Below are positions 13,316-63,837 of a stretch of DNA of 64,000 nt, in pieces. Numbering within the stretch: position 1 is the stretch's first letter; each line of letters begins with the position of its first letter. Under the pieces are notes generated by a model. It did not search any database. It was not told where the DNA came from and saw only the letters and a list, made by a program, of their open reading frames with translations. Origin of the DNA: Candidatus Melainabacteria bacterium (lineage in GTDB: Bacteria; Vulcanimicrobiota; JABDET01); NCBI GenBank assembly GCA_013286945.1, contig JABDET010000001.1, positions 4,590-68,589 of the forward strand. The letters run 5' to 3'. The position numbers and the translations under genes were made by a program.

Positions 13316-13447
13316 ATCTCGTCGCGAGATTCAACTTCCTCGGTGCAAAACCTTTTGACTTACTGCGAGATCAGTGTTGATCCTGTAAAGGACCGAGCGG
13401 GAGGGCTCCGACTTATTAAGGACAGGAATCCTTGGCTCTGAAAGGGA

Positions 13448-13612
13448 GCGAGTGCTGGTTACCGACCGAGCGGATTCACTGCAGTCCAACCAAAAAAATA
13501 ATGGTGAGTCACAAATTCAGTAGGGACATGGATGTCCCGCGGACTGCAGTGGCTCGGAGAACGACCATGGATGGTCGTTCGAGAATCAGCGAGGGAGGTG
13601 ACCAGCACTCGC
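13448..13612 (+). ncRNA. Structured RNA-like repeat element, copy 1 (core, from closing helix to closing helix)
   Basis: Closing 16-bp helix: GCGAGTGCTGGTTACC (13448-13463) pairs with GGTGACCAGCACTCGC (13597-13612). Second helix: CCGAGC[GGATT]CACTGCAGTCC pairs with GGACTGCAGTGGCTCGG. Two hairpins share a TGGA loop: GGGACA-TGGA-TGTCCC (13523-13538) and CGACCA-TGGA-TGGTCG (13562-13577). The T-G pair in the closing helix is a wobble only if the + strand is transcribed. Related copies are at 45598-45761 and 19338-19465. Confidence 0.5.
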
Positions 13613-13670
13613 GACCCCCACAGGGCCAAGGCTGAAAAGGAATCTAGCGGTTTATTACATCCATGTGAAT

Positions 13671-14461: not shown

Positions 14462-14493
14462 AATATAATTTGACAGGGATGTCAAATTTTATT
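14462..14493. promoter_or_regulatory. AT-rich near-perfect palindrome, candidate metalloregulator operator
   Basis: AATATAATTTGACA-GGGA-TGTCAAATTTTATT, with 14-nt arms and a 4-nt spacer. It is centred about 85 nt upstream of the ZIP transporter start and overlaps the tonB stop codon. It is AT-rich with no T-tract, so it is not terminator-like. Confidence 0.3.
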
Positions 14494-19261: not shown

Positions 19262-19337
19262 GATCGCTTCGCATTTCTATACGGCTTTCGATTTTCCTGG
19301 ATCGGCTAGAAGGCATCTTGCTCTGAGCTCTATGGGG

Positions 19338-19465
19338 AGCGAGCGGGGGTCCCTGAGGAAGCGGAATTGCGGCGCAAGCGCCACGGATGGCAAAAACGAG
19401 CCCGCACCTCGGAGACGGACACGGACGTCCGTCGAGAATGAGCGACGATGGGACTTCCGCTCGCG
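19338..19465 (+). ncRNA. Structured RNA-like repeat element, copy 3 (divergent)
   Basis: Shares the 5' GCTCTGA...GGAGCGAGCGGG lead-in and the 3' block CGTCGAGAAT-G-AGCGA...CTCGCGAC...AGGGC with copies 1 and 2. The closing helix is preserved with different sequence: GCGAGCGGGGG (19340-19350) pairs with CTTCCGCTCGC (19455-19465), including two G-T pairs that are wobble only on the + strand. An internal GACGGAC...GTCCGTC hairpin replaces CGACCA-TGGA-TGGTCG. Confidence 0.4.
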
Positions 19466-19509
19466 ACTCATAGGGCTTAGAGAAATCTTGCAACAGAGCA
19501 GGATAGCCT

Positions 19510-31092: not shown

Positions 31093-31617
31093 CTACTTAG
31101 TTTTCCCTTTTTCACGAACGTCTTCCTGAATCTTAAACCACTTGGAAAGCTGAAGAGGGGTGAGAATCTGTCGGATCTTTCGACTTTTTTCAATGTTAGC
31201 CATTTCAACCTCAACCAGAATCTTGGCATTTGCCATTAATTGAGTGCGAATGACTGAAAGATCAGCATTTTGGTCAATCAATTTTCGAGATTCTTTTTTC
31301 CCGGTTTCTAGATTTGCTCTGAGTCCTTGCAATGCTTTTTTGTTCTCATCATAGATTCCCTGAAGTTTTGCCACTTGATCGTTCGAGAGACCGAGTTCAG
31401 TCTTAAAGTCCCAAAGATACTTAGTTTTTTCTTCATTTTGGGTGGGCGAAGGGGCGGGGTTCAAGGGGATGGCCGCCGCCACTACTTTCGTCGGCAACGG
31501 ATTTCCTTCTGCCCCACGATAAAACGGGAGTAATGAAAGAGAGAAAACGAAAAAGAGAAGGAAGCGGAAAGGCCCGCTTCTCCTCTCTGTATTCTTTGAA
31601 TCGAAGGGTTTCGTCAT
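31093..31617 (-). CDS. Spy/CpxP-family (LTXXQ-motif) periplasmic protein
   Basis: Signal peptide. Two LTXXQ-like motifs (LSNDQ, LTPLQ). Helical, K/E-rich, as in Spy/CpxP chaperones. Overlaps the tpsA stop by 4 nt, so it is the last gene of the TPS operon. Confidence 0.5.
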   Translation of the reverse strand: MTKPFDSKNTERRSGPFRFLLFFVFSLSLLPFYRGAEGNPLPTKVVAAAIPLNPAPSPTQNEEKTKYLWDFKTELGLSNDQVAKLQGIYDENKKALQGLRANLETGKKESRKLIDQNADLSVIRTQLMANAKILVEVEMANIEKSRKIRQILTPLQLSKWFKIQEDVREKGKTK

Positions 31618-34600
31618 TTCTTATGCTTTTTCTGTAATTCTAGGACTTGTTCAAGTAGCTCCTCGGAATTTAAGGCGGCGAATGCATCGCCAAAGCCAAA
31701 GGAGTTGTCAATCGAAACACCAAAAGTGAGGTCGAACAACTCGTCCACATTGGCAAGATCGACATTGCCTTGAGCGATTCCTGAGAAGAACGTATCTGGA
31801 TTAGCTCCAATGGCTCCAAGGTCCAGCAGGAGGAGCTGGAATGGGCTTAGGTTTCCTGGCGGACAATCAGACAAGCAGTTTCCATTAAAGATGATCTGAC
31901 CTGAGGGATCCGGGAGATCGGGTTCCGGCATCCCTAAAGTATTATCCACCGTGATTCCATTGATGTCAACGGAAACGAGGCCAAAAATTCCGCCAGACTT
32001 CACACTCAAGATTCCTGTCGGAATGTTGACTCTGACGGGGAAGAGCACGCTTCCAATGATTCCGCTGCCAGCGACAAGAGACGAATTGCCTCCTGCTGTT
32101 AAGTTAAAGCCAGCGCCATTGTGCGTGTTGTCAAGAATCGCATGGACCGCGGTTAACTCGATGGAACCGCTCGCTGTCAAATAGTTCAGAAGAAGATCAC
32201 CGGCACTGTTGCTGACCACAATATTCCCAGCCGGGCCTTGCGCCAGTAAGTTGTTCAAAATGAAGCTGTCTGCATTGTTGAAGTAGATGCCCCCATTGTG
32301 CGCGGTGGCGTTCAGCACGGCGATGCTTCCTTGAATGGGATCTCCGGGAGCTCCGATGCCTTTTCCTGCATCCAAGGTCACGTAGTAGCCAGTGATCAGG
32401 CTCGGATCACTTAGAATAGAGCCGGCTGCGGTTAAGCTGAGTGAATTGCTCATGCCGACATTCACGTTTCCGACGAAGATGTTTCCGCCGGTGTTGTCAA
32501 AGAAGACATCGGTTCCCACCATGTTGGCATTCAGGGTCAGATCGGCAAAGGTGAGTGATTCACCCGTTGTGGTGTTGACGTTCGCATTGCTGTTGTTCGT
32601 ATTGACTGTCAGCGTTTTCAAGGCTTGGTTGTTCGCATCGAAGATAGGAGCATCGGTCCCAGTCGTTGTAAGCGACAGGTTAGGTGTGTCAGTGACTAAA
32701 GCCTGTTCCTCAGTTCCGATGCCGTCAACCGCTGTGAGGACCACGACCGCTCCGGCCACATTCACCGGGGGATCCTCTCCAACGATGCTTTGTGCGGAGA
32801 GATTCGCAAGGCCCTTCGCCGACACAAGCCCAAGAATCAGGTCACCAGGTGAGCTGATCCAGATGGATCCATTGTCCGCATTGGCGTTCAAAGCGTTATC
32901 GAGAAGCACACTCACTGGCAGATCAGCACTTCCAATGTCCTCGCCAGCGGTTAACCTGGCATGATCTGCTGTAAGGTTAATTTCATTCTCGCCTGCGTTT
33001 AAGATCGATCCAGAGGCGTTCAGCGTGACTCCACCATCGCCATCGAGAGTGTTCACAAGGCCGAGGGCAATATTTCCGCCGGTATTGTTGAAAGTGAAGT
33101 CGGCTCCTGGGAGGTTGGCGTTAAGCTCGTCATCGTCAGAGACGCTGAAGTCGACGAATTCTTCTCCACCTTCGCCAACGAGAATATGAACATCCCCATT
33201 GTTGGTTGTATCCGATAAGTTGTCAAAGTTTTCAGAGTTGTAGATATAAGTTTCCGCACCAAGACCAGTGGTCGTGGTGGTGAGGTTACGTGTCCGGGTC
33301 CGGAGGGCCTGTTCATCGGTTCCGATTCCAGTCACCGCGGTCAGGGTAATCTCGCCATTCGGTGCGGACACATCAGTTTCTCCAAAGAATCCGAATGCTT
33401 CAGATGGATTGCTGCTCGTGATGGATCCTCCGGCCGTTACGTTGGCGTTCCCGCCAGAAAAGATATGCGTAATCTCTGCATTGTTTCCCGCCGTGATATT
33501 GATGTCGCCGACTCCGGTGGTTACCCCTGAGTCCGCGTTTACAAAAACATCGAAGCCGGCATTCATATCGATTCCGTTGTCCGGGCCACGGTTGCCTTCG
33601 CCAAAAGTGCTTTCCGTGGTGAGGTAAGAGCCGGTAATGTTGATGTTTCCATTGGCGGCGTTAAGCGCGATGTTACCACTTTGGACGCTTGAAGAGTTAT
33701 CGCTGTGGGCGAAGCTCACAATTTCGGAGTTGTTTACATTGACGTCTCCGTTCGTGGCTGTCAAGGAGATATTCCCACTGGTGGTCGGGTCGAACTGGCT
33801 TTGGGCCAAGCTTTCTACAGAGGAACTATCAATATTCACATTCTGGCCGCCGGTAATGATCACATTTCCGCTGGTCGGCTCGAGGATGCCACCCGTATTC
33901 GTGGCCTGACTCAGGACCGTCGAGCTGTCCACATTGACGTCACCTTCGTTGGCAACCAAGGTGACGTCACCACTCTGGCTGTTGCCGGAATTGCTTGTAC
34001 TCTTGCTTTGAACAAGGGAACTGTTCAGGTTAAGGTCGTTGCCACCTATCAGAGAGACAGCACCACTCTGGCTGCCTCCGGAATCGCTGTTGCTCTTACT
34101 TTGGACTTCCGAACGATTGTTGATGTTGATGTCGCTACCTGCGGTCAGGGATACGGTCCCACTCTGGCTATTTCCGCCGCCGCTAGCATCGCTGAAGCTC
34201 TGAATCGTCGAGCTGTTGACGTCCAGGTTGTTTCCAGCGTTCATCGTGATATCACCGCTGGTCGGGTCTCCTCCATTGTTCGCTTCCGAGTTCACGTACG
34301 AGTTGGCAATCACGATATCGTTGCCAGCGTTGAAGGTGATATTCCCGCTGATGACATTGGGGGAGGCAGTACTCGATGCCCTGGTTTGAATACTTGATTC
34401 ATGAATACTAATGTCTCCGTTTGTGGCTGTTAAGGAAATATTTCCACTGGTAGTCGGGTCGAACTCGCTTTGGGCTAAACTTTGGACAGAGGAACTTCCA
34501 ATATTCACATCCTGGCCAGCGCTGATGACTACATCTCCACTGGTCGGCTCGAGGATGCCACCCGTATTCGTCGCCTGAGTAAGAATGGCGGAACTGTTAA

Positions 34601-37133
34601 TGTTGACATTTTGCCCAGCATTCATGGAGATGGCTCCACTCTGGCTGTTGCCAAAACCACTGCTGGAAAAACTTTGAATGTTTGAATGGTCCACATGGAT
34701 GTCGGTTCCAGCACTGAGAGAAATGTCGCCACTGGTGCTACTCCAGCTTCCATTGAAGACGGTACTAAGACTTGCCACATTGGTTCCACCAGTGATTGTG
34801 ACAGAACCGTTGGTGGCCGTGAGGGAGATCGAGCCACTCTGGGTGTTTGCGGTATCGCTGGTCGCGGTGCTCAGAATGGTCGAATTGTCGAGGCTTAAAT
34901 CGTTTCCGGCTGTCAGGGAGACATTGCCGCTCATCGGGTCTCCACCAAAATCATTAACCGAACTTTGGACCGTTGAGTTATTGACATTGATGTCATGACC
35001 TGCATTAATGTCAACATCGCCACTGGTGCTCACGGTTTCAGAGTTCGCATTCTGCGTATTGCTGATGCTTTGAACAAGCGAGCCGTTGGTGATATTCGCG
35101 TCATTTCCCGCCGTGAGGATAATGGATCCACTCTGAGTGTCTTCACCACCAGACGTATTGGCGGTGCTTTGAATGGTCGAACTGTCAACATTAAGGTCAT
35201 GTGCTGCGTTCAGGGTGATGTTGCCGCTCGTCGGATCGACAGATGCATCCGCTTCGGTGTTCACAAACGAATCATTGCTCATGGAAATATCGTTTCCGGC
35301 ACTAAAGGAGATGTTTCCACTGATAGCATTGTTCGAACTGCTGTGGGCAATGCTGTCTACTGTTGAAAGATTAAGCGTCAAGTTGTTCCCGGCGGTTAAG
35401 GAGACATTGCCGCTGGTCGGGTCTCCAAAATCGTCCGCCGAGGTTTCAATCGCTGAGTTGGTAACCTCGAGGTTTCGACCCGCTGAAAGTGAGATGTTGC
35501 CACTGTTTCCGTTATGATTCGTACTTTCAATAAAAGAATGATCGGTGGCGGTTAAGTCTCTTCCGGCCGACAGACCAATATCGCCAGAGATCGACTGAAT
35601 GCTCGACCCGGAGGCAATGATGTCCTTATCTGCAGTTACGGTAATGTTGCCGGCATCGGTCGTCAAATTAGCCAAGGCCGTAATTTCGCCACCGCTATTG
35701 AGCGTTGTCCCGGCGTTCAACGTGAGGTTTCCATTTCCTTGCGCCTGAACGGTATTGCTTGTGTTTTCAAAAATAATGTCGCCTGTACCCGTTTTTAAGG
35801 TGAGACTGATGTTGTTCGGAAGCGTAAGAGTTCCGCCGAGGGTAGACATGTCATCTAAAGTAATCGAGTTTGAAGAAGAAATCGTAATATTGCTGGAAGC
35901 TCCGGTCAAGAGGTTAGCCGAAATGATAAAATCGGTCGGCTGCGGTTCGTTTGAATCACCCCAACCGTCTTGATCGAACCAATTGACAATTTCAGCATTG
36001 ACTGGATCGATCAAGAGATTTCCAACCGTTCCATGAGGAGCTGACGTATTTACCACTCCGTAAACCCAGCCTCCCTTATCACCACTAAGTTCCACGTCGC
36101 CACCATTTCCGCTGGTTCCGGATTTTGCTTCAATGCCTCCCGAAAAGACCAACCTGCCTTGTGAAAGCGCATGGATGGTTCCCCCATTGGAATTTTCTCC
36201 GTCGCCGTTGGCTTGCGTCAAGCTCGAGCCGGGCAATACAGTACCCTGGGTGGAGTTAATCACGATGTTCCCAGCGCTATTATTAGCCGAGCCATTGGCT
36301 CGAATTGTCCCAATGTTTGCAGCAAAACCTTCTGACTTGCCCAAAATGACATGCCCATCCTCTGTGTGGGTAATACTTCCAGCTTCAATAACGCCACTGA
36401 AGTTGACAATGTTTTCGAGAAGAGCGCTGACTGCGTTTGAATCCATGACCACATCGTGCGGGGTATCGTTTCCGCTTAGGACAAAGTTGAGAAGGCCTTG
36501 TCCATCAAAATTTAAGACGGTCGCTTGAGTTCCGGCACCGAGGCCGACTTTCCCCAGGTTGGCGGTAATGGTTCCTTCGTTGCTGACCATTGGGGCTAAC
36601 AGGACCACTGAACCGCCGTCTGCAGCATTGATCGTTCCTTGGTTAACCACATAAGAAAGGGGATGATTCATGTCTTGTGAAAAAACGTAATTTCCACTAA
36701 GGAAATCGCTATCTTTCATGCTTAAGGTGGAGGCTAGAAGTCCCCCCACATTCACCGTGGCGGTTGGGCTAAAAAGAATTCCGTTTGGGTTTAGGAGAAA
36801 GACACGTCCATTAGCCTGTAATGCGCCCGCAATGACCGAAGGGTCACCGCCAAGAATACGGTTTAGTGTAGCAGCAGAGGTTGAAGGTTGAAGGAATTTG
36901 ACAAGCTCATTCAGATTGATTCCAAAACTGTTCCAATTGATGATCGCTCTACTGGTGGCCTGATTGATGGTGGTTGTTGTTGCCGCTTGAGTGATGGTCG
37001 CAGTTCCTGAGGTCACCACACCTCCCGAAGGAGCGCTCCATGACAACTGGGGCGAGATGAGGAAAGCAACCATAAGCCATGCAAGAACTTGTTGTCCAAT
37101 CTTTTTTCTTTTTGCCATCAACCTTTTAACCAT
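31614..37133 (-). CDS. Two-partner-secretion exoprotein (TpsA; filamentous-haemagglutinin-like beta-helix adhesin)
   Basis: N-terminal TPS secretion domain (…NQATSRAIINWNSFGINLNELVKFLQPS…ILGGDPSVIAGALQANGRVFLLNPNGILF…). It is followed by about 1500 aa of degenerate 20-aa beta-helix repeats (SGNISLTAGNDL…, SGNITLNAAHDL…). Length 1839 aa. No VENN or C-terminal toxin module was recognised. Confidence 0.9.
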   Translation of the reverse strand: MVKRLMAKRKKIGQQVLAWLMVAFLISPQLSWSAPSGGVVTSGTATITQAATTTTINQATSRAIINWNSFGINLNELVKFLQPSTSAATLNRILGGDPSVIAGALQANGRVFLLNPNGILFSPTATVNVGGLLASTLSMKDSDFLSGNYVFSQDMNHPLSYVVNQGTINAADGGSVVLLAPMVSNEGTITANLGKVGLGAGTQATVLNFDGQGLLNFVLSGNDTPHDVVMDSNAVSALLENIVNFSGVIEAGSITHTEDGHVILGKSEGFAANIGTIRANGSANNSAGNIVINSTQGTVLPGSSLTQANGDGENSNGGTIHALSQGRLVFSGGIEAKSGTSGNGGDVELSGDKGGWVYGVVNTSAPHGTVGNLLIDPVNAEIVNWFDQDGWGDSNEPQPTDFIISANLLTGASSNITISSSNSITLDDMSTLGGTLTLPNNISLTLKTGTGDIIFENTSNTVQAQGNGNLTLNAGTTLNSGGEITALANLTTDAGNITVTADKDIIASGSSIQSISGDIGLSAGRDLTATDHSFIESTNHNGNSGNISLSAGRNLEVTNSAIETSADDFGDPTSGNVSLTAGNNLTLNLSTVDSIAHSSSNNAISGNISFSAGNDISMSNDSFVNTEADASVDPTSGNITLNAAHDLNVDSSTIQSTANTSGGEDTQSGSIILTAGNDANITNGSLVQSISNTQNANSETVSTSGDVDINAGHDINVNNSTVQSSVNDFGGDPMSGNVSLTAGNDLSLDNSTILSTATSDTANTQSGSISLTATNGSVTITGGTNVASLSTVFNGSWSSTSGDISLSAGTDIHVDHSNIQSFSSSGFGNSQSGAISMNAGQNVNINSSAILTQATNTGGILEPTSGDVVISAGQDVNIGSSSVQSLAQSEFDPTTSGNISLTATNGDISIHESSIQTRASSTASPNVISGNITFNAGNDIVIANSYVNSEANNGGDPTSGDITMNAGNNLDVNSSTIQSFSDASGGGNSQSGTVSLTAGSDININNRSEVQSKSNSDSGGSQSGAVSLIGGNDLNLNSSLVQSKSTSNSGNSQSGDVTLVANEGDVNVDSSTVLSQATNTGGILEPTSGNVIITGGQNVNIDSSSVESLAQSQFDPTTSGNISLTATNGDVNVNNSEIVSFAHSDNSSSVQSGNIALNAANGNINITGSYLTTESTFGEGNRGPDNGIDMNAGFDVFVNADSGVTTGVGDINITAGNNAEITHIFSGGNANVTAGGSITSSNPSEAFGFFGETDVSAPNGEITLTAVTGIGTDEQALRTRTRNLTTTTTGLGAETYIYNSENFDNLSDTTNNGDVHILVGEGGEEFVDFSVSDDDELNANLPGADFTFNNTGGNIALGLVNTLDGDGGVTLNASGSILNAGENEINLTADHARLTAGEDIGSADLPVSVLLDNALNANADNGSIWISSPGDLILGLVSAKGLANLSAQSIVGEDPPVNVAGAVVVLTAVDGIGTEEQALVTDTPNLSLTTTGTDAPIFDANNQALKTLTVNTNNSNANVNTTTGESLTFADLTLNANMVGTDVFFDNTGGNIFVGNVNVGMSNSLSLTAAGSILSDPSLITGYYVTLDAGKGIGAPGDPIQGSIAVLNATAHNGGIYFNNADSFILNNLLAQGPAGNIVVSNSAGDLLLNYLTASGSIELTAVHAILDNTHNGAGFNLTAGGNSSLVAGSGIIGSVLFPVRVNIPTGILSVKSGGIFGLVSVDINGITVDNTLGMPEPDLPDPSGQIIFNGNCLSDCPPGNLSPFQLLLLDLGAIGANPDTFFSGIAQGNVDLANVDELFDLTFGVSIDNSFGFGDAFAALNSEELLEQVLELQKKHKK

Positions 37134-37159
37134 GGGGAAAAGCCTCCTTTGAATCTCTG

Positions 37160-38788
37160 TTAAAACTGTTTTGAAAATTGCGCATAGAGCACAGGAAGTT
37201 CATTTGACAAATTCTTCGAAGGACTAATCGGGAAGCCGAGATCAATACGCAAGCTTGTTGATTTGCCGAGTCCAGCGCGAAGACCGACACCTCCGCCGGT
37301 GAGCTGCTTTTTAGAAACTGATCCAGGAAGTGCATTTCGAAGGGTCATGTATCCGGTATCGACAAAAAAGGCGGTTTGCAAGCTATTAACATCCGTGTTT
37401 GCGGTCATCGGGACACGAAACTCTGCACTGGCGGTCCATCCCGAATCTCCTAGAAACTCGGATTGTTCGTAGCCCCGAACCGAATCAGGTCCGCCCAAGG
37501 CAAATTGCTCGGTAATCGCAAGAGGGCTAAGGGAGTACTGAGCTGTTCCATGAAGTAACAGATACTTGTTGGTAAAAACTCTTTGAATATGAACCAGTTC
37601 GACATTCGCCTTGGTAAAGCTGTCGTCTGCGCCTACACGGCTTGCTAAAGGATCCCCTCTCATCATTCCCCCCATGAAGGTACCAAGCCCTTGAGTGACA
37701 CTTGAAGTCAAGAAATCCCTCGCGGTATCGGTTGCCCACTGGCGGTCAAAGCCAAGAGCCAATTCACGAAGTCGATCACGGCTTGTAAGAAAACTGGTCA
37801 GGAAAAAATTAGAGACGTTTTTCGCATAAAAACTAGCGGTAAAATCTGAGCCTCCCGTTGTGGTTCGACTCAAAGGTTGTGTGAAAGTAAATCCGTAGAT
37901 CTGCGCTGTACCCCGAATATCCAGAACTTGGAGATCCTGCCCAACCCGGATATCTGCTGAGGCAAATGAACCTGTAAGCTTGGCTCCGGATGGGCTTATC
38001 GGTGTTGTATAGTAAGCTTGATAAAAGGGGGACTCGTTATTCGTAGGGACCGGAACAACCATTCTTGCATCCAGGAGGTCGCCCCGTCCACTTAAGCTCC
38101 CATGCCAATATTCAAAACCAAATCGGTTTCGACCAACAAGCGGGTTTCCAAAATTGTTGTAATCCAGTTGTCCATGAGAGGGTTCTGAATCTTCGACCTT
38201 CAGAAGAACATCGGTTGTTCCCTGCTTTCCGCCTGGCTTTAGGAATGCACGAACATGAAGATCGGGGAATTCATTCAGAAGAACCAAGGCGCGCTCAAAA
38301 TCTTCAGAGACACCTCGCCGAGCAGCCGGAGAGAAATAATATCGAATGAAATCTGAAGAATAGTGCTTGTTCCCCTCCACATCGATCTTGCCAATTTTCC
38401 CTTCAACCACATCAATCTCGACCACCCCATTTTGGATGTCTTGCGGAGGAACAAAGGCGCGAGCGAGGAGATATCCCTTTTTCCGGTAAAGCCCAGTGAT
38501 TTGTACGGCGACATCTTTCAAAGTGTCCAATTGGATCTCTTTGCCGATGTAACCGGACGTAATGGAAGAAATTTCTTGTGGAGTCAAGAGCGTGCTGCCG
38601 GATACTTCAATGGATTTAATTGGGACCTTGATTTCTGGAGGTGGTGCGGGCTTCGGAGTTGAGCGGGTTGCATTTTCAGCAACCACCGGCCCATAAAGCG
38701 TTTCTGACATAGAAGAACGGGTTGAACCCCAGAGAAGAACAAAGCTTAGCAGAAACGAGATTAAGATCTTCGAAGGTGTTAGTTTCAA
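37160..38788 (-). CDS. TpsB transporter (ShlB/FhaC/HecB family haemolysin activator/secretion protein)
   Basis: 542 aa. Signal peptide. POTRA region followed by a 16-strand Omp85-type barrel. The terminal residue is F. Immediately upstream and co-directional with tpsA. Confidence 0.9.
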   Translation of the reverse strand: MKLTPSKILISFLLSFVLLWGSTRSSMSETLYGPVVAENATRSTPKPAPPPEIKVPIKSIEVSGSTLLTPQEISSITSGYIGKEIQLDTLKDVAVQITGLYRKKGYLLARAFVPPQDIQNGVVEIDVVEGKIGKIDVEGNKHYSSDFIRYYFSPAARRGVSEDFERALVLLNEFPDLHVRAFLKPGGKQGTTDVLLKVEDSEPSHGQLDYNNFGNPLVGRNRFGFEYWHGSLSGRGDLLDARMVVPVPTNNESPFYQAYYTTPISPSGAKLTGSFASADIRVGQDLQVLDIRGTAQIYGFTFTQPLSRTTTGGSDFTASFYAKNVSNFFLTSFLTSRDRLRELALGFDRQWATDTARDFLTSSVTQGLGTFMGGMMRGDPLASRVGADDSFTKANVELVHIQRVFTNKYLLLHGTAQYSLSPLAITEQFALGGPDSVRGYEQSEFLGDSGWTASAEFRVPMTANTDVNSLQTAFFVDTGYMTLRNALPGSVSKKQLTGGGVGLRAGLGKSTSLRIDLGFPISPSKNLSNELPVLYAQFSKQF

Positions 38789-45432: not shown

Positions 45433-45597
45433 AGCTTCGGCCCAAAAAGCGTGTCCCCTTCGGCACAAGTAATTCAGTTTCCCAATGAACACTCCGATCT
45501 TGTTGTTCTTGTCGGATGACCGAGCGGGAGGGGTCCGACGCGGTGAGTATTGCGCAACTTTGGATGAACAAGTGGAATCCATTGGCTCTGAAAAGGA

Positions 45598-45761
45598 GCG
45601 AGTGCGGGTTACCGACCGAGCGGATTCACTGCAGTCCGACCAAAAAATAATGGTGGGCCACAAATTCAGTAGGGACATGGATGTCCCGCGGACTGCAGTG
45701 GCTCGGAGAACGACCATGGATGGTCGTTCGAGAATCAGCGAGGGAGGTAACCCGCACTCGC
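45598..45761 (+). ncRNA. Structured RNA-like repeat element, copy 2 (core)
   Basis: About 92% identical to copy 1. The closing helix GCGAGTGCGGGTTACC (45598-45613) pairs with GGTAACCCGCACTCGC (45746-45761). Relative to copy 1, T to G at helix position 9 is compensated by A to C in the partner strand. The same CCGAGC[GGATT]CACTGCAGTCC / GGACTGCAGTGGCTCGG helix and the two TGGA-loop hairpins are present. A second small compensatory pair is GTGGGCCAC here versus GTGAGTCAC in copy 1. Flank similarity extends to 45519-45778, with a 25-nt insertion relative to copy 1. Confidence 0.5.
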
Positions 45762-45842
45762 GACCCCCTCAGGGCCAATGGTGAAAAAGAATTCAGCGGT
45801 CACACGACAAGGATGACAAGATCGCAATGTTCGTTGGGAGCT

Positions 45843-54012: not shown

Positions 54013-54059
54013 CGAAATCATCCAGCGGTCACACGGATGTGATAAACCGCTGGATTCCT
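54013..54059. repeat. REP-like palindromic element, copy A
   Basis: Hairpin: ATCCAGCGGT (54019-54028), loop CACACGGATGTGATAA, then ACCGCTGGAT (54045-54054). Flanked by GAAATC and TCCTCT. A near-identical unit in inverse orientation lies at 57564-57611. Confidence 0.5.
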
Positions 54060-62726: not shown

Positions 62727-63182
62727 CTACGGCAACAATCCACCTCTCGCATAATATTGCGGGTAGGTAGTGTTAGCACCAATAATCACCCCGTGAGCAG
62801 CTGTAGCACCTGCTGCTCCCTGAAGGATCGTATAATTGTTGATCGGTAAAGCCGCCGCGTTATACGAATAGAAAGCTTGGTTTGCTGGACATACCGCCGG
62901 AGCTCGCATGTACTGGATTCCGAGGTTAGCGGTCAGCCAAGCTGCGTTCATAGCGGTTGTCGCACCAGCAGGGCCAGGATAATTCCCCTGGTTATCGGTG
63001 GAATACATTTCCAATGAGGTGGCCATATTCTTCTCATTGGATTCACAAGCTGATAGCTGGCTTTGTGCACGAGCTCTGATGAAGTTTGGAATAAGAATGG
63101 CTGCAAGGATCGCGATAATAGCGATCACAATCATGAGCTCGATCAACGTGAAACCACTGGTCTTCTTGAAGAATCTTTTCAT
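62727..63182 (-). CDS. Type IV pilin-like protein (prepilin-type N-terminal cleavage/methylation domain)
   Basis: Class III signal: KKTSG|FTLIELMIVIAIIAILAAILIPNF, with Glu5. 151 aa, Ala/Gly/Thr-rich C-terminus. Confidence 0.85.
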   Translation of the reverse strand: MKRFFKKTSGFTLIELMIVIAIIAILAAILIPNFIRARAQSQLSACESNEKNMATSLEMYSTDNQGNYPGPAGATTAMNAAWLTANLGIQYMRAPAVCPANQAFYSYNAAALPINNYTILQGAAGATAAHGVIIGANTTYPQYYARGGLLP

Positions 63183-63399
63183 GTTTTCACCCCCTTCCTC
63201 CTAAAAGTAATGCTTCTCCTATTCTGTTATACCCAAACGGTTACCTCTTAGACGGCAAGGGGCGAAGTGGCCTGCGCTATGAGAAATCTTTGCCGAATTT
63301 GTAAACCAACGGAAAAAAACGAGTTCTTAGGAGTTGCTTTTTGAGTTTCTGTTATTGGAAAGAGGCTGTTAAGTCACGCAGTTCTGCAAGAGGCTATGC

Positions 63400-63837
63400 C
63401 TAAGGAGTAAGACCTCCAGTGGAAAGGTATTGAGGAAAGTTCGCAGGAATGCCAAGCAAAACATGGGCTTGCTGATTTACCGGGCCTTGGCTTAGAGTAA
63501 ACATTGTATTGGAAGAGCCTTCAGCATAAACATAAGGGGCGAAGTTTGTCGGGCAGGTCGGATTTGCGCGGACATAGTCACCCCAGGTGGTCGCCGTGGG
63601 ATCTGGCAACGCGGATCCGTTTGCGTTTGGATAGGCTCCTAAATTCGAAGAAGAATACATCTCCAAGCCAGCAGCCAAATTCTTTTCGTTTAATTCGCAA
63701 GCTGACAATTGACTCTGTGCCCGAGAACGGATGAAATTAGGGATCAAGATAGCGGCAAGGATCGCGATAATGGCGATGACAATCATGAGCTCGATCAGGG
63801 TAAACCCGTCCCTTCTCAGGGGTTCAGTTCTCAGCAT
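63400..63837 (-). CDS. Type IV pilin-like protein, paralog
   Basis: RRDG|FTLIELMIVIAIIAILAAILIPNF. The N-terminal 40 codons are nearly identical at DNA level to the 62727..63182 gene. Start assigned to the Met 8 residues upstream of the cleavage motif region. Confidence 0.85.
   Translation of the reverse strand: MLRTEPLRRDGFTLIELMIVIAIIAILAAILIPNFIRSRAQSQLSACELNEKNLAAGLEMYSSSNLGAYPNANGSALPDPTATTWGDYVRANPTCPTNFAPYVYAEGSSNTMFTLSQGPVNQQAHVLLGIPANFPQYLSTGGLTP

Follow-up and report, generated by a model that had tools for sequence, protein, structure and literature searches.

In the RNA class closest to the element described here, the TwoAYGGAY motif (RF01731), two terminal loops of sequence AYGGAY are combined with a closing stem that is often very large, e.g., 24 base pairs (bp) with few mismatches, and the published rows carry hairpins such as AAAC-AUGGAU-GUUU, CAC-AUGGAU-GUG, UGCC-AUGGAC-GGCA, and CCC-AUGGAU-GGG (Weinberg et al. 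2010, Genome Biol 11:R31). At least five copies are present in Psychromonas ingrahamii, amid other repeats (Weinberg et al. 2010). The motif has been matched with the motif that CsrA binds and predicted to be a CsrA-binding small RNA (sRNA), a prediction that was not validated (Gardner and Eldai, RMfam). It has been an orphan since 2010, with CsrA sequestration as the only functional idea. The consensus for CsrA obtained by SELEX, RUACARGGAUGU, has GGA within a hexaloop and AC/GU as pairs, and the CsrA dimer bridges sites 10-63 nucleotides (nt) apart; CsrA-titrating sRNAs are established in Gammaproteobacteria only. Here, we analyzed a 64-kb stretch of a Candidatus Melainabacteria bacterium genome (contig JABDET010000001.1, positions 4,590 to 68,589; hereafter, the window), in which an intergenic element occurs in three copies (c1, c2, and c3, in window coordinates). 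We consider this element reasonably likely to be a TwoAYGGAY-type structured RNA.

The three intergenic copies were all located near the positions given in the original prediction, an earlier reading of this DNA, and all lie on the + strand, as do the features listed below. Copies c1 and c2 have ~94% identity if the linker, ~23 nt longer in c2, is left aside, and their flanks are unrelated. By local alignment of the two, the common repeat unit spans 13375-13651 in c1 and 45501-45800 in c2, so that the homology overshoots the closing helix by ~55-80 nt on the 5' side and by 20 nt on the 3' side. The divergent copy, c3 (about 19315-19491, core 19321-19482), keeps the same order of blocks, namely GCUCU, GGAGCGAG, AGCGGA, CUCGGAGA, UCGAGAAUNAGCGA, CUCGCGAC, and AGGGC; MAFFT places its 3' half wrongly. 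We built a covariance model (R1; 204 positions and 62 pairs) from c1 and c2 alone, entering the helices manually. With all filters off, R1 found c3 at full length with 64.9 bits (E about 7e-15), against 17.4 bits on the - strand at the same site and 11.6 bits at the best unrelated site of the 64 kb, and exactly three copies are present in the window. The cores of c1 (13429-13632) and c2 (45579-45781) scored 253.9 and 256.6 bits, respectively, and core length across the copies is about 165-205 nt. Because a model that lacks c3 recovers it at full length, c3 is a true homologue of c1 and c2 in both sequence and structure. Similarly, the pattern TCGAGAATNAGCGA-N(8-30)-CTCGCGAC has three matches in the window, which are c1, c2, and c3, and none in 100 shuffles.

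Each copy carries two hairpins, Ha and Hb, whose terminal loops are AYGGAY hexaloops closed by a C-G pair. In c1, Ha is GGGAC-AUGGAU-GUCCC (13523-13538) and Hb is GAACGACC-AUGGAU-GGUCGUUC (13559-13580), the latter with two compensatory pairs relative to c3. Identical hairpins stand at 45672-45687 (Ha) and 45708-45729 (Hb) in c2. The c3 counterparts are GCC-ACGGAU-GGC (Ha, 19380-19391), a weak stem that competes with GGCG/CGCC, and GACGGAC-ACGGAC-GUCCGUC (Hb, 19414-19433). Thus, c1 and c2 hold AUGGAU twice and c3 holds ACGGAU and ACGGAC, as in the loops that define TwoAYGGAY. All four independent hexaloops are AYGGAY with C-G closure, varying between U and C at positions 2 and 6 only, and the loops are kept while the stems beneath them differ between c1/c2 and c3. 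The loop-to-loop distance is 39, 39, and 38 nt in c1, c2, and c3, respectively, despite unrelated intervening sequence. C-G-closed AYGGAY hairpins number six in the 0.74 kb of the element versus about four in the remaining 127 kb (both strands). All copies also retain GGAs elsewhere, namely in the internal loop G-GA-G, in the GCGGA(A)U bulge, in the CGGAGA linker, and where the P2 3' strand starts. Two hairpins outside the copies are also recorded here. At 54028-54043 (+), in the ~800-nt spacer between the divergent aldehyde dehydrogenase and LeuRS genes, GUCAC-ACGGAU-GUGAU has an AYGGAY loop and an R1 score of 7.7 bits, which is noise. At 14467-14488 (+), in the spacer that separates the ZIP transporter gene from the stop of a tonB-like open reading frame (ORF), the 8-bp hairpin AAUUUGAC-AGGGAU-GUCAAAUU has a C-G-closed GGA hexaloop that is not AYGGAY and may be the terminator of a - strand gene or another GGA-type site.

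The consensus fold runs from helix P1 through an internal loop and helix P2 to a three-way junction, which holds arm 1 (P3, a bulge, P3a, and Ha), arm 2 (Hb), and a junction strand. In all three copies, P1 and P2 add up to a nearly unbroken closing stem (about 27-31 bp) interrupted by one internal loop, matching the very large closing stem of TwoAYGGAY. In c1, the P1 5' strand CCUUGGCUCUG (13430-13440) pairs with CAGGGCCAAGG (13621-13631), including a U·G wobble kept in all copies. The conserved G-GA-GCGAG and the variable P2 5' strand follow (13445-13463, of which 13448-13463 is P2); the latter pairs with the P2 3' strand (13597-13612), and the 3' strands of P2 and P1 read GGUGACCAGCACUCGC-GA-CCCCCA-CAGGGCCAAGG (13597-13631). 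The conserved internal loop, in which G-GA-GCGAG faces CUCGC-GA-C (13608-13615), may form tandem G·A pairs. The first arm of c1 (13466-13557) consists of P3 (CCGAGC/GCUCGG, 13466-13471/13552-13557), the bulge GGAUU (13472-13476), P3a (13477-13487/13541-13551), and a variable interior with Ha; across the copies, the bulge between P3 and P3a carries the conserved GCGGA(A)U. From Hb back into P2 runs a conserved strand of 14-18 nt, (U)CGAGAAUNAGCGA, represented by UCGAGAAUCAGCGAGGGA in c1 (13579-13596), where it is unpaired in the consensus and could form a 3-5-bp UCG/CGA hairpin with an 8-nt loop, and by UCGAGAAUGAGCGACGAU in c3 (19432-19449). The corresponding helices are P2 at 45598-45613/45746-45761 in c2 and, in c3, P1 at 19321-19336/19467-19482, P2 at 19339-19353/19450-19464, P3 at 19354-19358/19407-19411, and P3a at 19368-19372/19402-19406, with the register of c3 P3 differing by two positions between the manual reading and the model. 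An alternative GAUU/AAUC pairing, present in the minimum-free-energy folds of c1 and c2, was rejected, as c3 changes AAUC to AAUG without compensation.

Several lines of evidence indicate that this fold is maintained. The minimum free energies of c1, c2, and c3 (-116.5, -119, and -91 kcal/mol) give z-scores of -7.2 to -8.0 versus shuffled controls, and the consensus helices alone account for -100, -104, and -85 kcal/mol. Standard pairs fill 96.5% of the pair cells in A4, the model-derived alignment of the three copies. In the same alignment, which is fitted to the model and comprises three sequences of a single genome, with 94% identity between two of them, both sides have changed at 15 pairs, versus 5.3 ± 1.7 in column shuffles (0/500 reach 15) and 0-1 two-sided changes when partners were slid by 1-3 columns as a control. 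The 11 positions substituted between c1 and c2 leave every helix intact: four make up two compensatory pairs, one turns U·G into U-A, and two give c2 an extra terminal pair. The claim of the original prediction that nested structure is kept through compensatory change is therefore borne out, both by the recovery of c3 with R1 and by the counts of pair changes. Of its individual helices, we recovered the 16-bp helix GCGAGUGC[U/G]GGUUACC / GGU[G/A]ACC[A/C]GCACUCGC, including the U-A to G-C double change, the bulged helix CCGAGC[GGAUU]CACUGCAGUCC / GGACUGCAGUGGCUCGG, the two "UGGA" hairpins of c1 and c2, and a c3 closing helix remade from different sequence. One further small helix, proposed from GUGAGUCAC versus GUGGGCCAC, did not hold up, since it would be a 4-bp stem on a 1-nt loop, a sterically impossible hairpin. 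The symmetric double substitution between GUGAGUCAC (c1, 13504-13512) and GUGGGCCAC (c2, 45653-45661) is nevertheless real and keeps a 9-nt palindrome, which could be a site for a dimeric protein, a site of intermolecular pairing, or the product of a single multi-base mutation.

The polarity of the wobble pairs bears on the strand. The + strand consensus helices contain two, one, and five G·U pairs in c1, c2, and c3 (eight in total) and no A·C apposition, as had been expected from the earlier observation that the wobbles fit the + strand only, and the + strand fold is better than that of the - strand by ~10 kcal/mol. On wobble polarity, we would read the element as a + strand RNA. A cobalamin or other riboswitch on the - strand was considered and rejected, since it has no Rfam match and the wobble polarity opposes it.

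Outside the consensus core, c1 and c2 share a 5' module, GACCGAGCGGGAGGGCUCCGAC, at 13391-13412 and 45518-45539, respectively, which is missing or unrecognizable in c3. The 10-mer GACCGAGCGG occurs twice in each of these copies (13391-13400 and 13464-13473 in c1; 45518-45527 and 45614-45623 in c2), with 0.07 occurrences expected in the window; one of the two lies in the 5' module and the other is the 5' strand of P3. Since the module repeats GACCGAGCGG, it could vie with P3 for GCUCGG and give an alternative pairing. Short direct repeats also flank the closing stem, AUCUUGC in c3 (19315-19321 and 19485-19491) and AGGAAUC in c1 (13424-13430 and 13638-13644). Since related AAUC-type boxes are found again in all copies, these repeats seem to belong to the element as conserved parts, perhaps for processing or binding, and not to be target-site duplications.

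The genome holds at least five copies, c1 to c3 plus two deduced from spurious ORFs. A protein search with the c2 ORF led to the fourth, P0001, a 75-residue prediction that is 87% identical and lies on a 26,988-bp contig from the same sources as the window contig. The fifth was found with a six-frame query: the first 40 residues of a uvrA-like protein (P0122, on a 36,553-bp contig) translate the element, which lies there in sense orientation, ~40 nt upstream of where uvrA probably starts. Among the changes deduced from protein in these two copies, four transitions make + strand G·U pairs in P1 or P2, one change turns the conserved U·G into U·C, and one is a C to A change in CUCGC whose partner is not covered. 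The fourth copy has UUGAGAAU in place of the TCGAGAAT block, so that this block is not invariant. The concatenated six-frame query missed P0001 although it contained the ORF that had found it; its negatives are therefore unreliable. A 5.8-kb Logan contig (SRR8433451), identical to the window, has its start within c3 and its end within c1, the outcome expected of a repeat, and hints at further c3-like copies in SRR8433451. In 185,579 genomes and the JGI metagenomes, the pattern TCGAGAATNAGCGA-N(8-30)-CTCGCGAC had only chance matches in coding DNA, and this exact pattern is too strict because the fourth copy varies the TCGAGAAT block. No copy was found in the viral contigs, plasmids, or phages searched. 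The lineage is sparsely sampled, the next PriA relatives being 52-60% identical and those after them 43%. In seven of these relatives (PriA 52-60% identical), nhmmer, motif scans, and R1 found no copy in ~120 kb around priA, and the orthologous priA-LigB spacer of the nearest relatives does not contain the element.

The surrounding DNA is ordinary chromosome, with genes for SHMT, MreB, LeuRS, PriA, TonB/ExbBD, RND efflux, and a two-partner secretion pair. That pair comprises an 1839-residue ORF at 31614-38788 (-), with a TPS secretion domain at its N terminus and numerous repeats in its interior, and the adjoining ShlB/FhaC-type transporter. No Rfam family reaches its gathering score anywhere in the 64-kb window, tRNA and riboswitches included. 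The antisense position relative to flanking genes that the original prediction had noted applies to the three window copies and does not extend to the fifth copy, which is sense and upstream of the uvrA-like gene; it also weighs little, as nearly all genes from 9 to 54 kb lie on the - strand. Two observations stand apart from the element. In a relative with 53% PriA identity, a locus with Cas12b (C2c1), Cas4/Cas1, and Cas2 lies directly downstream of priA, a position occupied in the window by c2 and the LigB/AMMECR1 genes. Two pairs of direct repeats (155-161 nt, 76-77% identity) lie at 8791-9161 and 63001-63807, one of them inside an unannotated ORF (7732-9315).

Taken together, the best overall explanation appears to be a + strand structured RNA that serves as a decoy for a dimeric GGA-binding protein, a reading that we hold with slightly less than even confidence. 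Under this explanation, the element would be transcribed as its own + strand sRNA with a core of about 165-205 nt, and a rigid three-way junction would hold out the two GGA hexaloops at a spacing of 38-39 nt. A homodimeric GGA-binding protein of the CsrA/RsmA type would then clamp the two hexaloops with its two RNA-binding faces, the other conserved GGA sites perhaps being bound as well, and the multiple paralogous copies would titrate this protein off its mRNA targets. We infer the separate transcript, the loop-bound protein, and the CsrA-like identity of that protein. The CsrA-sponge mechanism specifically is possible but doubtful. A further-reaching proposal, that the element is an expanded, multi-copy CsrA-type decoy of the TwoAYGGAY class and the first in a deep, barely sampled lineage, or else that its junction core has a new activity, would seem unlikely. 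If the decoy explanation is true, RNA-sponge control of CsrA reaches beyond Gammaproteobacteria, and the orphan TwoAYGGAY class gains a function.

A number of points weigh against the decoy explanation, in addition to the narrow base of the covariation. With regard to the binding sites, (i) the second loop position is Y here and R in the SELEX consensus; (ii) a review of CsrA states that very stable stems may disfavor binding, and the loop stems of the element are 5-8 bp; and (iii) the enrichment in GGA count is mild, at 12 versus 7.4 ± 2.2 in c1, and is not significant in c2 and c3. With regard to class and context, RF01731 is unmatched at its gathering score in the window and at E up to 10 in four slices of 86-451 nt, the junction sequences are unrelated to the published TwoAYGGAY rows, no model of the Csr/Rsm clan reaches its gathering score on the element, and tblastn with three CsrA-family proteins found no csrA in the 64-kb window. 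Finally, no sigma-70-like promoter or intrinsic terminator common to the copies was found on the + strand (this consensus may not be that of the lineage), and a recently spread repeat also fits the finding that c1 and c2, which lie at unrelated loci, are 94% identical.

The last of these points leads to the most serious rival, namely that the element is a non-autonomous repeat, similar to a miniature inverted-repeat transposable element (MITE) or to REP sequences, with no function in trans and a palindrome kept for propagation or for action in cis as a terminator, insulator, RNase III site, or mRNA stabilizer. We regard this as unlikely, though it must be taken seriously. As in Correia/NEMIS, ERIC, RUP, and REP/BIME repeats, the copies are short, multi-copy, and intergenic, with a long hairpin and some near-identical members, and they break short-read assemblies: at least five of them stand at unrelated intergenic sites in one genome, their orientation relative to neighbors varies, and c1 and c3 each contain a break in a short-read assembly of this organism. 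The absence of the element from the priA-LigB spacer of the nearest relatives points to lineage restriction, no promoter or terminator was detected, the closing stem resembles ~30-bp imperfect inverted repeats, and TwoAYGGAY is itself multi-copy amid repeats in Psychromonas. The architecture, however, does not conform to such repeats. The inverted arms (13430-13631) are internal to the unit (13375-13651), whose ends are not inverted repeats of each other, and no target-site duplication was found, with no direct repeat flanking the c1 or c2 unit. The terminal inverted repeats and target-site duplications named in the original prediction as signs of a MITE were thus looked for in the window copies without being found, and a classical MITE was rejected for lack of both. 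Between subfamilies, moreover, the arms change with pairing kept while the loops and junction are conserved, which is the reverse of what is seen for termini recognized by a transposase, and all mismatches are G·U on one strand. Because the + strand is antisense to the flanking operons in the window copies, the favored fold would lie outside those mRNAs. Pfam searches of 36 annotated window ORFs also detected no transposase, reverse transcriptase, TnpB, or integrase domain, so that no cognate transposase is seen, and this agrees with the earlier statement that no TnpB, IscB, reverse transcriptase, or Cas gene adjoins the copies; among those ORFs, no IS200/605 gene lies near them either. An IS200/605 element, a TnpB/IscB omega-RNA, and a retron were set aside on the same grounds, with neither partner domains in those ORFs, an Rfam match, nor a 3'-end hairpin.

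A less probable rival retains the structured RNA and gives it another partner or activity, as an ANTAR-type target, a scaffold for a different dimeric RNA-binding protein, or a new catalytic (e.g., self-cleaving) RNA, with AYGGAY loops that would serve in tertiary contacts or recognition and have nothing to do with CsrA; we consider it improbable. The strict conservation of CGAGAAUNAGCGA, the GGAG/CGAC internal loop, and the GCGGA(A)U bulge amid varying helices is typical of a tertiary core, and small self-cleaving ribozymes are commonly multi-copy. No sequence sign of a cleavage site was seen, however, and there is no Rfam ribozyme or ANTAR-type match at E up to 10. In ANTAR targets, two hexaloops carry A as the first and G as the fourth nucleotide; they lie in the leader of the gene under control, where a terminator overlaps the second hairpin. 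The hexaloops of the element do carry A1 and G4 in the ANTAR-like manner. Unlike in ANTAR leaders, the hairpins are ~25 nt apart inside a large fold, all six loop positions are constrained, no terminator overlaps the second hairpin, and the window copies are not 5' leaders of co-oriented genes.

The weakest rival, that the copies encode a small protein through ORFs 13432-13635 and 45485-45784, can be dismissed as having almost no chance of being correct: ORFs of 67 and 99 residues do span c1 and c2, and gene callers predicted a 75-residue ORF (P0001) over the fourth copy, but an A7/A6 indel puts the c1 and c2 ORFs in different frames in their 5' halves, the conserved block is read in a third frame in c3, the fourth (P0001) and fifth (N terminus of P0122) copies are called in two different frames, a HMMER scan over 1.84 billion representatives found nothing besides P0001 and repeat proteins of biased composition, and the substitutions follow base pairs. 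The element is non-coding. This was also the conclusion drawn originally from the ORFs, although the supporting statement that they differ only by non-synonymous changes does not survive the frameshift in the 5' halves.

We return, then, to the decoy explanation and its comparison with the Csr/Rsm sponges (CsrB, CsrC, and RsmX/Y/Z; clan CL00106). The features in common are the C-G-closed GGA hexaloops, the repeated GGA motifs, here as paired sites at a spacing inside the 10-63-nt range, and the presence of several paralogues per genome. In particular, ACAUGGAUGU (c1 Ha) and ACACGGACGU (c3 Hb) match (A/U)CANGGANG(U/A) and, except at position 6, RUACARGGAUGU. When slices of 86-101 nt were searched, the sole sRNA families to surface, over the hairpin region, were RsmY (6.5 bits, gathering score 57) and PrrB_RsmZ (8 bits, gathering score 44). 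In contrast to the sponges, which have 5-22 sites, the element has two clear loop sites and is locked by a 30-bp closing stem, no promoter or terminator of its own was found at any copy, and its host lies outside the Gammaproteobacteria.

The likeness to TwoAYGGAY is closer. Beyond the two loops and the closing stem, both are multi-copy in one genome, intergenic, and not cis-regulatory. The original prediction had recognized no known class in the element; this holds in so far as no Rfam 15 family gives a meaningful match (at gathering scores, or at E up to 10 with slices), but it had overlooked the TwoAYGGAY hallmarks and the fit to the CsrA/RsmE binding consensus. There are also clear differences: (i) Ha sits inside an extra arm (P3, bulge, P3a, and multiloop), and only Hb branches straight off the junction, whereas both AYGGAY hairpins do so in the published rows; (ii) the junction strand of 14-18 nt has a conserved sequence of its own, to which c1 and c2 add the 5' module; and (iii) the known hosts are Clostridia, Gammaproteobacteria, and gut samples, whereas the host here belongs to a deep lineage. 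We call the element a divergent, expanded variant of the TwoAYGGAY kind and do not file it as a member of RF01731, because that model gives it no score at the thresholds tried, an additional arm encloses Ha, and its junction sequences bear no relation to the published ones. As the element escapes the curated Rfam model, the TwoAYGGAY class is probably wider than currently annotated. The likeness may stem from common descent or from convergence on one and the same partner. In either case, the two AYGGAY hexaloops, their C-G closure, the loop spacing, and the long closing stem have been kept while nearly all else was rebuilt, which points to these features as the functional core, and the element in this unrelated, uncultured lineage offers an independent test case for the idea of a protein clamp on the TwoAYGGAY loops.

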